Origin: Candidatus Bathyarchaeota archaeon
GTDB lineage: Archaea; Thermoproteota; Bathyarchaeia; Bathyarchaeales; Bathycorpusculaceae
Length of the DNA stretch: 64,000 nt
Direction of reading: 5' to 3'
NCBI GenBank assembly: GCA_963739305.1
Contig: CAVTZU010000024.1
Coordinates: forward strand, 10,245 to 74,244
Positions 10,077-38,218 of the stretch are shown piece after piece. The position numbers were made by a program, and so were the translations under genes. The notes beneath the pieces were generated by a model. It saw only the letters and a program-made list of their open reading frames with translations. It made no database searches and was not told the DNA's origin. Numbering within the stretch: position 1 is the first letter of the stretch; every line of letters starts with the position of its first letter.

Positions 10077-10757
10077 TCATGCGGTTTCAATTATTGTTCC
10101 AACAGGTTTTCCTTCAACAGCAGACAATACGTTCTTCGGGTTGAAGCCGTTAACAACAACAACCTTGACTTGATAACGACTCAGAATCTTGACAGCCTCC
10201 GGGTCGATGACCTGATGAATCCCTGCCTTGTGTCTTGTTTCTGATAACACTTTCAGCAGATCTTCGATTTTCAGATGGTCGATTTTCACTGCATCCGAAT
10301 GTTTCGCTGGATCCTTGTTATAGATGCCGTCCTGGTTCGTAGCTTTCACGAGCACATCGGCCCTTATCTCCTTAGCAACGAGAGCTGCAACGGTGTCAGT
10401 CGTCATGCCCGGCTTCAACCCTCCCATAACGGTCACTTTTCCTCTTCTAAGGCACTCAACTGTATCCCTAAGGGTCAGAGGAATTGCAGCGCATCCATTC
10501 TTGCCCAGCTTTTTCACGAAGAGCTGTGCAAAGATCCTAGAAGCAGAAATTGCAATCTCATCTTGGGCTGGCTCGGCCAGACCCATGTCCCTGGCAACGT
10601 TAATCATTTCTCTGGCAAGCTTTCCTCCACCGACAACGACAACAATCTCGTGTTTTTGCTTTTTCATTTCCTCAAGAAGCTCGACGTACTCCAGCATCAG
10701 TTGAGGATTAATCGGCGTAGCCACGACTGATCCGCCTACCCTCAGAACAACTCTCAT
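10077..10757 (-). CDS. pyrH: UMP kinase
   Basis: RVGGS, VVGGGKLAR, GGLKPGMTTDTVAA, TNQDGIY..DP. Confidence 0.93.
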   Translation of the reverse strand: MRVVLRVGGSVVATPINPQLMLEYVELLEEMKKQKHEIVVVVGGGKLAREMINVARDMGLAEPAQDEIAISASRIFAQLFVKKLGKNGCAAIPLTLRDTVECLRRGKVTVMGGLKPGMTTDTVAALVAKEIRADVLVKATNQDGIYNKDPAKHSDAVKIDHLKIEDLLKVLSETRHKAGIHQVIDPEAVKILSRYQVKVVVVNGFNPKNVLSAVEGKPVGTIIETA

Positions 10758-29115: not shown

Positions 29116-29209
29116 TGGCGGGCCCGCCGGGAATTGAACCCGGGACCCCCGGATATCTCCGCGAATTGCCTAAAAGTCCGGTGCTCTATCCTTACTGAGC
29201 TACGGGCCC
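29116..29209 (-). tRNA. tRNA-Lys(TTT) with 16-nt canonical 37/38 intron (29155..29170); CCA encoded
   Basis: GGGCCCG/CGGGCCC-G-CCA, anticodon arm CCGGA-CTTTTA|A-TCCGG, central helix CTTT/GGAG. Confidence 0.93.
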
Positions 29210-35728: not shown

Positions 35729-36397
35729 ATGGCAGCCAGCTTTGTTTGGGCTTATGGCAAAAAGGTCGTTAGTTGGGTCTTAATTTTCAATGGCCTCCTA
35801 AGCATAGTGCTTGCCTTGGGACTTTTGATCGGCTTCTACGCGGCGCACTGGAGACTTTACCAGCCATATCTTTTGAATGCGAATCTTTTGTGGGCGGCAA
35901 TTCTAACCTCGATAACGAACTTTTTTCCAACAGCAAAATTTGGAAACGTGAAAGTCCGCAGGATAAGGTTTCATCACTTCGTCTACGGATTCGCGATCTT
36001 ATCAGCATCGGCCATATTAATGATTTTGATGCCCGTTTCTCTCCTTAGCCTGTTCAATTTGAACATAACCAGCGTGGATTTTAATGTTGAACGGGTCTTT
36101 GTCTTGGTTGGCTTAACCCTGATAATAGACGATTTCGCCGACATCTCAAACATAACGATGACGGGACTTCGCTTCGCGAAATCAAAGGCTTATGAAAAAC
36201 GAAGAACAATCCATGCAGTCCAATGCCTCTTATTCTGCGTAACCTTCTTCGTTCTCCTTTGCATCACCGTCTGGCTGGTACAAAATCCAAAAGGACTAAT
36301 CCTTAGGAACTTGGCAGTAGAGGGCAGTTTGTTGGTTACCAGCCTAACAAGCTTCGCAAGCGCACTTAGGAAGGTATGGCTGAAAATCACGCCATAA
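35729..36397 (+). CDS. Multi-pass membrane hypothetical protein
   Basis: About 6 TM helices, RFHHFVYG and LIIDD motifs. Confidence 0.7.
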   Translation: MAASFVWAYGKKVVSWVLIFNGLLSIVLALGLLIGFYAAHWRLYQPYLLNANLLWAAILTSITNFFPTAKFGNVKVRRIRFHHFVYGFAILSASAILMILMPVSLLSLFNLNITSVDFNVERVFVLVGLTLIIDDFADISNITMTGLRFAKSKAYEKRRTIHAVQCLLFCVTFFVLLCITVWLVQNPKGLILRNLAVEGSLLVTSLTSFASALRKVWLKITP

Positions 36398-36556
36398 CCG
36401 GCTGGAACAGACGAGGAGAAAGCACGCTAGATTATTGGAATGGCTTCCTTAGCAATTTCTGTTGAATGTTCACAATGTCGTTTGTTGTTTCAGGAGTTGG
36501 CGCGCTCTTATGTCATCCAGAAGCCTTATTTACGCATGGATAACAATTACCCTCAT

Positions 36557-36654
36557 AGGTTTAAGGGGAGCTGGGCCGTGACCTGGCTGAGAGGACGGTT
36601 GAACACCGTCGACCCATAGAACCTGATCCAGATAATACTGGCGGAGGGAAAACT
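36557..36654 (+). promoter_or_regulatory. TPP riboswitch (THI element)
   Basis: GGGG...CTGAGA...GACCC...GAACCTGATCCAGATAATACTGGCGGAGGGA; P1 GGTTT/AAACT, P3 AGCTGGG/CCTGGCT, P3a GACGGT/ACCGTC; directly upstream of thiT. Confidence 0.93.
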
Positions 36655-37197
36655 GTGAATCAAGACACTGATACGACTAAAAAACGTCTTTTTCCAACCC
36701 ATCTACTTGCAGAGACAATAGTGTTGGTAGCCCTAGCGGGAGCGCTCAGCGTCGTTAGCCATTTTTTCTTCAGTCTTCCTCAAGGTGGATCCATTAATAT
36801 CGGTATGGTTCCTGTCCTTTGGCTGGCTCTCAGGAGAGGGCCAAAGATAGGGATCTTTGCAGGCGCAGTTTTCGGTTTAGTTGACCTTGCAATTGAACCG
36901 TTTGTCGTTCACCCTATACAGTTTATCTTGGATTATCCGTTAGCGTTCGCGGCCCTTGGTCTCGCAGGATTCTTTCGAAAACTCCCGGTCATAGGTGTCA
37001 TCGTAGCAGTGACTGGTCGCTTCCTGTGCCACTTCACTTCGGGCGTGGTCTATTTCCCCAGCTACGCGCCGGAAGGGATGAGCGTCATTGTCTATTCAGC
37101 AATCTACAACGGAATATATATGGTGCCAAGCATGATAGTATGCGCAATAGTAATCGGCTTGCTGCAGAAAAGCAAAGCCATTAACATTTACCTGTGA
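36655..37197 (+). CDS. thiT: Energy-coupled thiamine transporter S-component ThiT
   Basis: LPQGGSI, HPIQFILDYPLAF, RFLCHFTSGVVYF..YAPEG, YSAIYN; TPP riboswitch upstream. Confidence 0.92.
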   Translation: MNQDTDTTKKRLFPTHLLAETIVLVALAGALSVVSHFFFSLPQGGSINIGMVPVLWLALRRGPKIGIFAGAVFGLVDLAIEPFVVHPIQFILDYPLAFAALGLAGFFRKLPVIGVIVAVTGRFLCHFTSGVVYFPSYAPEGMSVIVYSAIYNGIYMVPSMIVCAIVIGLLQKSKAINIYL

Positions 37198-37213: not shown

Positions 37214-38218
37214 ATGGGAAAACTGCGAAATGAAGAACTCGCGGAGATGCTGAGATGCATCAGACACACTCCAAGAGTGATAGTCCCGCCGTTGCCCGGT
37301 TTTGACTCCGGTGTCCATGAAATCGATAGCCACAGACTTTTGGTCATCTCGACAGATCCATGCATCGGTGTTCCCGACGAGTGGTTCGGCTGGCTCTTGA
37401 TTAATTACGCGGCCTCTGATGTTGCACTCTTTGGCGCCAAGCCCCAGTACTGTTCAGTCAACCTTCTGGGACCTCTGGGCACTAAGGGGCAAACGTTCCA
37501 GAAAGCCATGAGACAAGCCTGCACGGCCGCAGACGAACACGGTTTGACTATTATTACAGGTCACACAGGGTCCTACAGAGGGTTGACTACCATGGTGGGC
37601 GTGTGCACGGCCTACGGCATCATCAATCGAAACGAGCTGATTACTCCGGCGGGTGCCAAGCCTGGTGACCTCATATTATGCACTAAGCCCATAGGGCTGG
37701 AGTTGGCTGTCAACTTCGCGCTAGCTCAAAGAAAGGTTGCAGAGGAGATTTTCGGGACAAGAAGAGCGTGTGAATTGAGGGGACTCGTCAAGATGCAGAG
37801 CTGCGTGAATGAAGCATTGTTACTTGCGGGAACGGGTTTTGTGCACGCCATGCATGACGCCACCGAGGGTGGATTGACGGCCGCTATTAACGAAATGGCT
37901 GAAGCTTCTCAGGTAGGCTTCACTGTAGAATTTGAAAAAATACCGTTCGTAAGAGAGTCCAAGGCGTTGAAGGATCATTTCCGACTGTCAGACACTCAAT
38001 TGCTTTCGATGTCTTCGACAGGTGCCGTTCTAGTGGCCGTCGGTTCCAAATCACTAGGGTCCGTTGAGAAAACGCTTAGACGTAACGGGATAAATCCGGC
38101 GGTCATAGGCGTTTTTTCGGAAGACCGAAAACGGCGCATCGTCAAACATGGAAAAAAGAGACAGTTTCCAAAAGCAGGGCAGGATCCCTACGAAAGAATT
38201 CTCTCAGGGCAGCTGTAG
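37214..38218 (+). CDS. AIR synthase/PurM-fold protein (ThiL/HypE-like)
   Basis: STDP, SDVA, GHTG, GAKPGD, MHDATEGG. Confidence 0.82.
   Translation: MGKLRNEELAEMLRCIRHTPRVIVPPLPGFDSGVHEIDSHRLLVISTDPCIGVPDEWFGWLLINYAASDVALFGAKPQYCSVNLLGPLGTKGQTFQKAMRQACTAADEHGLTIITGHTGSYRGLTTMVGVCTAYGIINRNELITPAGAKPGDLILCTKPIGLELAVNFALAQRKVAEEIFGTRRACELRGLVKMQSCVNEALLLAGTGFVHAMHDATEGGLTAAINEMAEASQVGFTVEFEKIPFVRESKALKDHFRLSDTQLLSMSSTGAVLVAVGSKSLGSVEKTLRRNGINPAVIGVFSEDRKRRIVKHGKKRQFPKAGQDPYERILSGQL

Follow-up and report, generated by a model that had tools for sequence, protein, structure and literature searches.

Riboswitches responding to thiamine pyrophosphate (TPP) are presented in the accessible portion of a 2024 review (PMC10907184) as the exemplar of the strand-exchange group, with the direct occlusion group made up there of the SAM-II, SAM-III and preQ1 classes and TPP not named among them; the same text allows that a single aptamer class may fall into more than one mechanistic group. 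The available part of an earlier account (PMC2018614) describes TPP as gripping two helical arms, P2/P3 and P4/P5, with helix P1 forming last. Here we analysed a TPP riboswitch upstream of thiT, the gene for the thiamine-specific S component of an energy-coupling factor (ECF) transporter, in a 64,000-nucleotide stretch of DNA from Candidatus Bathyarchaeota archaeon (assembly GCA_963739305.1, contig CAVTZU010000024.1, forward-strand positions 10,245 to 74,244; hereafter the window, numbered from its first letter). In this riboswitch the Shine-Dalgarno (SD) sequence lies within the aptamer and the aptamer extends to the start codon, a layout put forward by a first reading of the letters of the window (the original prediction) and found in our analysis to recur across the class Bathyarchaeia.

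The described systems closest to this one each share a part of its design. The thiM riboswitch of E. coli has the same RF00059 aptamer and the same ligand, and it turns translation OFF through a masked ribosome-binding site, as we infer for the window switch; in the portions of the literature at hand, however, thiM has a separate downstream expression domain in which an anti-SD strand exchanges partners, whereas the window switch has no downstream domain, its SD being the 3' strand of the aptamer's P4 and its spacer a strand of P1. SAM-II, SAM-III (SMK box), preQ1-I (T. tengcongensis) and preQ1-II, going by similarly partial descriptions, resemble it in that aptamer and platform are one unit and the ribosome-binding site lies in the ligand-stabilized fold, an arrangement that the geometry implies for our locus. 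They differ in having other folds (mostly H-type pseudoknots) and other ligands and in being all bacterial, and occlusion by the archaeal element is a prediction. In Lactococcus lactis a TPP riboswitch, RSthiT, likewise stands directly 5' of an ECF S-component gene thiT, where it is thiamine-repressed; according to the available part of that report (PMC8862789) it depends on a run of U ahead of the AUG that is interpreted as an intrinsic terminator, whereas the archaeal switch has neither a terminator nor a distant SD hairpin.

For archaea, the accessible text of a 2021 paper (PMC8241225) gives the fluoride riboswitch of Thermococcus kodakarensis as the only natural archaeal riboswitch determined experimentally, so that on this account no archaeal TPP riboswitch mechanism had been tested as of 2021. 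Like the window element that riboswitch is archaeal and is thought to act on translation, but it belongs to another class and binds another ligand. Riboswitch counts in the available part of McCown et al. 2017 (PMC5473149) stand at 79 for Euryarchaeota, 6 for Crenarchaeota, 1 for Korarchaeota and 1 for Thaumarchaeota. A literature search, with supplementary files outside its scope, found no papers on Bathyarchaeia riboswitches, and we provisionally regard the platform-less TPP layout as undescribed so far. THI elements before Thermoplasma transporter genes were reportedly noted by Rodionov et al. in 2002 and are said to have been predicted to act on translation. Those elements have in common with ours that they are archaeal TPP riboswitches on thiamine transport genes, and differ in belonging to Thermoplasmata and not to Bathyarchaeia.

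A cmscan of the whole 64 kb window against Rfam 15 returned two matches, a TPP riboswitch and a tRNA, the former being the only riboswitch match, and an RF00059 search of the entire 2.32 Mb genome recovered this match alone, with no second TPP element. The match, at 36554-36666 on the forward strand, covered the full model (1-105) with 63.4 bits (E = 4.2e-10), above the gathering score of 54.3 bits. All blocks of the core were present, namely CUGAGA at 36587-36592, ACCUGAUC...UAAUAC at 36621-36638 and CG-N-AGGGA at 36642-36649, and these blocks varied little or not at all across 41 riboswitches that RF00059 recovered from relatives without selection for a downstream gene. Pairing in the same 41 reached 99-100% for P2, P3, P3b, P4 and P5. 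Two-sided compensatory changes in P3, P3b and P5 amounted to 39 cells compared with 14.2 in shuffles, none of the 500 shuffles being as high, while the P4 pairs were invariant in 41 of 41 sequences, which makes P4 uninformative for covariation either way. Judged by score and conservation the window element is a genuine, ordinary RF00059 member, and the complete THI element of the original prediction is borne out as a full-length canonical aptamer. Its features, together with the gene that it precedes, are as follows.

36554 to 36666, + strand: TPP riboswitch aptamer matched by RF00059, with its structured core at 36558-36654.
36558 to 36562, + strand: 5' strand of P1, GGUUU, extendable with 36555-36557 to AUAG-G-UUU and also complementary to GAACCUG at 36619-36625.
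36622 to 36624, + strand: 5' strand of P4, CCU, inside the invariant AACCUGAUC and partner of the A, G and G of the SD in the Rfam alignment.
36643 to 36647, + strand: SD sequence GGAGG, the GG-AGG of the aptamer's conserved CG-G-AGGGA, of which 36645-36647 form the 3' strand of P4.
36650 to 36654, + strand: 3' strand of P1, AAACU, doubling as the spacer from SD to start codon (Rfam alignment and folding).
36655 to 37197, + strand: thiT, ECF transporter thiamine-specific S component, GTG start, 180 amino acids.

In the Rfam alignment A36645, G36646 and G36647 of the SD pair with U36624, C36623 and C36622, respectively, G36643 and G36644 belong to the internal loop between P5 and P4, and the GA at 36648-36649 is junction. 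According to this alignment the SD sits in P4, not P1, a refinement of the earlier claim of a GGAGG inside the aptamer 7 nt before the GTG, which the sequence otherwise confirmed: seven bases (36648-36654) separate it from the GTG at 36655-36657. The P1 of the window, GGUUU/AAACU, has 5 bp in the fold and can be extended. Because the last base paired in the model abuts the start codon at 36655, there is no separate expression platform, again as claimed. The 3' end of the organism's own 16S rRNA reads ...GGAUCACCUCCU, including ...GAUCACCUCCU, and its CCUCCU is complementary to the SD. Genome-wide, with crude start calls, GGAGG stood at -18 to -4 of 60 of the 1470 long open reading frames (ORFs) compared with 4 in a control zone (15-fold), and the spacing mode of 7-9 nt takes in the 7 nt found at thiT.

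This short layout was conserved among relatives. A start codon lay at most 10 nt 3' of the conserved CGNAGGGA in 31 of the 41 riboswitches, belonging to thiT in 27 cases, to other ECF S components in three and to a ParA-like ORF in one. Sorted by the gene downstream, the distances from GGGA to the start were as follows.

thiT (n = 27): 4-10 nt.
Other ECF S components (n = 3): 4-5 nt.
ParA-like ORF (n = 1): 7 nt.
thiT without a canonical start at the usual place (n = 3): longer by ORF call.
thiC (n = 5): 74-85 nt.
NCS1 permease (n = 2): 76-78 nt.

Two of these last three thiT loci have ACG (L008) or ATA (L017) at the usual start, 5-8 nt after GGGA, where their relatives have ATG and from where the frame is open; the codons may be near-cognate starts or may reflect errors of assembly. 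In the same family, the leaders of thiC (L007, L026, L027, L031 and L032) and of the gene for the NCS1 permease, of the cytosine/purine type (L012 and L025), contain hairpin and T-run motifs and an SD of their own, UUUUGGAGG, and on these signatures the switches of both genes carry separate expression platforms. Since these switches of the same lineage have spacers of 74-85 nt and their own SD, the short form is a distinct design linked to gene class. When the 41 were joined by thiT-anchored loci (a pattern search found the riboswitch in 57 of 67 non-bacterial loci) to form a class-wide set of 93 distinct Bathyarchaeia riboswitches, the start fell within 10 nt of GGGA/CGNAGGGA in 74, with a gap mode of 5-7 nt that corresponds to 7-9 nt from GGAGG.

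The short layout was found in none of the 35 bacterial riboswitches examined. RF00059 matched at 11 of the 13 bacterial thiT loci nearest to this ThiT, all 11 having either a distant SD and hairpin or a terminator, and none of the 24 riboswitches parsed from a sample of the Thermovorax phylum (41 genomes, 30 loci fetched) was of the short form. Bacterial starts that seemed to lie within 5 nt (L132, L146 and L149) were rejected as spurious ORFs running over terminator hairpins. From these alignments the platform-less layout appears conserved across the class, and its architecture looks like a new variant of RF00059 regulation.

Genes other than thiT were also seen behind riboswitches of this kind. 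In a single-contig genome of the same family (L018) the riboswitch stands directly 5' of an ORF for a ParA/MinD-like P-loop ATPase of 246 amino acids (PF13614), which is either an odd target for TPP or a mis-called ORF. At L022, L036 and L038, from the same genus and order, the same platform-less riboswitch lies before genes for ECF S components of the PF07155 family, not ThiT; these components may import thiamine precursors.

Scores above the RF00059 threshold were obtained in 39 of 61 close relatives and in 31 of 36 genomes of the same family, among them one from the same genus assembled as a single contig. In wider samples they occurred in 92 of 151 genomes from the class, with no more than 4 copies each, and in 31 of 151 genomes from the phylum. 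This survey of Bathyarchaeia metagenome-assembled genomes (MAGs) contradicts, for this class, the view that archaeal TPP riboswitches are rare and mainly confined to Thermoplasmatales. The link between riboswitch and thiT is not universal in archaea, because five thiT loci labelled Nitrososphaerota or Thermococci (L072, L094, L099, L102 and L116) had no RF00059 match in the 1.5 kb upstream. The action of archaeal riboswitches is almost untested, and here TPP riboswitches are the rule in a globally abundant archaeal class; most of those linked to thiT have a minimal design in which ~100 nt combine promoter, sensor, SD and start codon.

Upstream of the aptamer, the alignment of the 41 loci and the archaeal promoter consensus delineated four further features.

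36519 to 36532, + strand: B recognition element (BRE)/TATA-like promoter element, with TTATTTA at 36526-36532 after the purine-rich CCAGAAG.
36540 to 36549, + strand: A/T-rich conserved block, ATAACAATTA, 3' of the TATA element and 5' of the predicted transcription start.
36550 to 36554, + strand: pyrimidine tract CCCTC, complementary to GAGGG at 36645-36649 and predicted to lie just 5' of the transcription start.
36555, + strand: predicted transcription start, A36555, at a C-A step 26 nt from the TATA centre at 36529.

The window's CCAGAAGCC-TTATTTA aligned with AGGAAAA-TAAATATA(C), a conserved block set at a constant spacing 5' of the aptamer; next in the alignment came the conserved ATAACA(A/T)T(T/A)A, then a tract rich in C/U, and then AAGGUUU. 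We take 36519-36532 to be the putative promoter on the strength of the archaeal BRE/TATA consensus, and presumably transcription starts near A36555, at the archaeal promoter spacing that we assume from the TATA centre. A pyrimidine-purine step is conserved in relatives 2-4 nt 5' of AGG. We infer a transcription start at ~36555, the 5' end of the aptamer, with an mRNA that would open with the 5' strand of P1; the earlier proposal that TTATTTA sets the start at this end thereby gains the support of a BRE/TATA-like block conserved in relatives, the start position itself being a prediction. The ATAACAATTA block, kept in the degenerate form given above in nearly all family riboswitches (L002-L041) whichever gene lies downstream, may be a promoter-proximal element or an operator. 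It was not enriched in its own genome (5 copies compared with 6.7 expected) and the other copies did not lie at promoters of thiamine genes, and a role as the operator of a regulon was rejected for this genome.

Taken with the embedded SD and its conserved geometry, these features suggest that the element is probably a translational OFF switch acting by direct occlusion, beginning at or near the transcript's 5' end behind the conserved BRE/TATA promoter. This was the direction proposed originally, and it stands as the best reading. In the accessible part of PMC10907184 direct occlusion is defined by a ribosome-binding site integrated in the aptamer, with aptamer and platform as one unit, and the geometry of the window element agrees with that definition. 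A leader of ~100 nt, consisting of the aptamer alone, would control translation of thiT and probably also of the AIR-synthase-like gene behind it. The promoter would fire at ~36555 and the RNA would begin with the 5' strand of P1. When TPP is plentiful, clamping of the two sensor arms would stabilize both P4, which contains the A, G and G of the SD, and P1, which contains the spacer AAACU and, in this genome, reaches into the GUG. Positions 36645 to ~36656 would then be paired, with AGG in P4 and AAACU(GU) in P1, and burial of the ribosome-binding region (36643-36656) would shut out the small subunit, giving the OFF state with no platform. At low TPP neither P4, with its 3 bp, nor P1, rich in A/U, would be strong enough to hold, and the SD would be freed, possibly aided by pairing of the 5' strand (U)AGGUUU with GAACCUG, which includes the 5' strand of P4. 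If this model is true, a direct-occlusion branch would be added to the TPP class, so far treated as strand-exchange only, and the locus would offer a compact canonical-SD system for asking whether a ligand-locked RNA blocks archaeal translation initiation.

The minimum-energy fold with its 5' end at 36555 (-34.9 kcal/mol) kept P2, P3 and P5, left the SD largely unpaired and paired U36556-U36562 with G36619-G36625, in the 5' strand of P4. Enforcing P1 and P4 gave a best fold of -30.4 kcal/mol, 4.5 kcal/mol above the free minimum, a gap that ligand binding could bridge by our own estimate rather than by computation. Such energies are compatible with a switch.

Several observations weigh against direct occlusion by this aptamer. 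P4 has just 3 bp and stands beside a G-G mismatch. P1 is weak in most relatives, where its 10 x 10 nt duplex had a median of -1.3 kcal/mol, at a median percentile of 0.41 relative to random 10-mers, and fixed-register pairing of P1 was 45%. Complementarity specific to cognate P1 strands was not seen among these sequences, own pairs having -3.35 and cross pairs -3.30 kcal/mol, with 793 of 2000 permutations as low. P1 covariation was dropped as an argument, as the column count, the test of cognate against non-cognate duplexes and the random 10-mer control all lacked a specific conserved P1; compensatory-looking cases, such as GGUCU/AGACC in L003 and AGGGU/ACCCU in L006, are few and anecdotal. 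The ligand-free helix is modestly enriched over random windows (38% of the 93 sequences at or below the 10th percentile, median 0.157), is equally possible in the platform-bearing thiC types and is no stronger in the short type. A full GGAGG precedes only the 60 of 1470 ORFs noted above, by crude start calls, and the dependence of translation on SD sequences is uncertain. Finally, the G that completes GGAGG also occurs in thiC and NCS1-type switches of Bathyarchaeia and in 8 of the 24 bacterial switches from the Thermovorax phylum, on which grounds the G of CG-G-AGGGA was rejected as an SD-creating adaptation. In the thiT-anchored set, where sequences are related, long spacers accompanied a base other than G in 6 of 10 cases and G in 2 of 41 with an ORF.

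The ligand-free helix also leaves room for internal strand exchange, a tentative possibility in which the 5' strand (U)AGGUUU toggles between GAACCUG (no ligand, SD free) and the AAACU spacer (P1, ligand bound); this could refine direct occlusion and is compatible with it, the aptamer then holding its own anti-sequestor. Minimum-energy folds of 36555-36680 and 36557-36660 both form the 7-bp helix 36556-36562/36619-36625 while keeping P2, P3 and P5, AAGGUUU is conserved across the family, divergent 5' strands elsewhere (AGUUCU, AUCAG and AGGUG) still match other registers of UAGAACCUGAUC, and no AGGUU-like 5' strand was seen in the 11 bacterial thiT-linked switches, whose sequences were read by eye. 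Enrichment over random 16-mers is modest, however (10% of sequences rank no higher than the 5th percentile and 38% no higher than the 10th), and the counts overstate the support since the sequences are related. The thiC and NCS1 switches, which have real platforms, could form this helix as well, the target strand is invariant and so beyond a test of covariation, and the complementarity may be a by-product of the resemblance between the 3' strand of P1 (AAACC) and GAACC. The SD has another perfect complement in CCCUC at 36550-36554, which would act as an anti-SD, its pairing with GAGGG competing with the aptamer, if transcription started 5' of 36550. Folding of 36550-36680 gives a minimum-energy structure with that pairing (-39.3 kcal/mol, z-score -2.2), and a C/U-rich tract is kept at this place in most relatives, but we consider such a start quite improbable: an RNA that includes CCCUC would have its SD masked whether or not ligand is bound, leaving no switch, which argues against a start upstream of 36550 or else against the model. 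The conserved TATA block, moreover, stands 26 nt before 36555, not 36549, and the tracts of relatives, read by eye, match the SD or the P2 strand over just 3-5 bp, in a register that shifts from one to another. It is likewise improbable that the switch works mainly by terminating transcription or through mRNA decay, at an oligo-T tract for instance, and masks the SD only incidentally. Archaeal polymerases terminate at T runs, a T5 run occurs in the early coding region (36689-36693) and the longer leaders of thiC-type relatives have hairpin and T-run motifs; yet there is no T run between aptamer and start codon, where the spacer is AAAACU, the T5 run was not seen in the N-terminal coding sequences of relatives examined, and what is conserved is the SD-to-start geometry (74 of 93).

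The remaining alternative, which we hold to be highly improbable, concerns the provenance of the locus: the region would be bacterial DNA, either inserted recently or present as a wrongly binned contig, and thiT would have brought the switch with it from bacteria. The genome (2.32 Mb in 36 contigs, 97.1% complete) has a contamination estimate of 7.8%, and the ThiT proteins of Rubrobacter, Bacillota and Coprothermobacterota share 44-55% identity with that of the window. In a quick maximum-likelihood ThiT tree of 77 rows (the window and 76 of the 80 kept loci, those with fewer than 130 aligned residues or a stop being dropped), nine bacterial rows adjoin the 10-row subclade of the window, with Shimodaira-Hasegawa-like approximate likelihood ratio test (SH-aLRT) support of 89, the subclade itself having 96. 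Being unrooted and sampled from the 80 loci with the highest similarity to the query, the tree gives no direction of transfer. An archaeal host, as originally assumed, is indicated by the ThiT relatives in a collection of species-representative genomes, which are 'Candidatus Bathyarchaeia'/'Bathyarchaeota' MAGs from 74% identity downwards, by archaeal-type neighbours (a valyl-tRNA synthetase, PRK13208, 963 bits, and an MptN-like ligase) and by an archaeal small-subunit rRNA in the genome. The tRNA of the window (29116-29209, - strand; Rfam match 29119-29209, - strand) points the same way, having a 17-nt insertion in its anticodon arm, an archaeal-type intron; ARAGORN calls it as tRNA-Leu (anticodon TAG). 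GC content is even (0.43-0.51) across 30-44 kb of the window, the promoter is archaeal in type, and the same switch recurs in the family and class as described above. The window aptamer shares 85-92% identity with the Bathyarchaeia aptamers that precede thiC and NCS1 genes (median 85% to 91 other Bathyarchaeia aptamers) and only 67-72% with the 11 bacterial thiT-linked aptamers, and a pattern in which all Bathyarchaeia ThiT lie inside one bacterial clade and carry the aptamer type of that clade was not seen in the unrooted 77-row tree and the aptamer comparison. On these comparisons the element is native to Bathyarchaeia and widespread there, and is not a chimeric bacterial insert. The suggestion that the switch was acquired from bacteria together with thiT found no support, the bacterial switches having separate platforms and the aptamer being typical of its own lineage. 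The ThiT phylogeny does place a bacterial group next to the window subclade, and on this tree an old inter-domain transfer of thiT alone, in either direction, is possible.

The gene behind the riboswitch was assigned to ThiT by PF09515 (163.1 bits compared with 25.8) and by the NCBIfam equivalog TIGR02357 (152.1 bits, cut-off 108.45). Its N-terminal motif (T/S)K(I/L)LAE is conserved in 17 homologues, and no later start is possible for this reason. A CbiQ/EcfT gene (120.6 bits) lies elsewhere in the genome, on contig C32, beside two ABC ATPase (EcfA) ORFs, and this EcfT with the two EcfA proteins would energize ThiT. ThiC, ThiN and TPK were not detected in the 97% complete genome and ThiE fell below its cut-off, while a true ThiL (268.8 bits) was found on contig C13. 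With these enzymes missing and an ECF module present, the organism looks like a thiamine auxotroph dependent on uptake, for which repression of uptake by TPP is the expected logic. The locus would thus mark its hosts as thiamine auxotrophs that tune uptake, and it points to an uncharacterized enzyme linked to thiT.

On the other side of the promoter, an ORF of 222 amino acids (35729-36397, + strand) had no Pfam or NCBIfam match and no tblastn match in 120 related loci. The gene that follows thiT could be described more fully.

37214 to 38218, + strand: AIR-synthase-like gene (PurM superfamily; PF00586 and PF02769), 17 nt 3' of thiT.

This gene is probably co-transcribed with thiT. It scored below every NCBIfam cut-off, with 84.8 bits for thiL (TIGR01379, cut-off 184.15), 81.1 for selD and 77.1 for hypE, and identification as ThiL was rejected on that score, the true ThiL lying on contig C13. 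Among solved structures its best match is HypE, followed by SelD and ThiL, and source annotations are generic ('AIR synthase-related' or 'hydrogenase maturation factor'). We speculate that it is a candidate salvage kinase for imported thiamine under riboswitch control. A bolder combined proposal, that the aptamer is a self-contained switch in which nucleotides of P4 and the pyrophosphate arm double as the SD and the 5' strand toggles, and that the PurM-superfamily enzyme is the missing thiamine kinase of archaea lacking TPK, ThiN and ThiE, seems to us unlikely as a whole. Genes of this type, at no less than 48% identity, stood 3' of thiT, either directly or ~0.7 kb further on, in 54 of the 120 loci searched, all 54 being non-bacterial.

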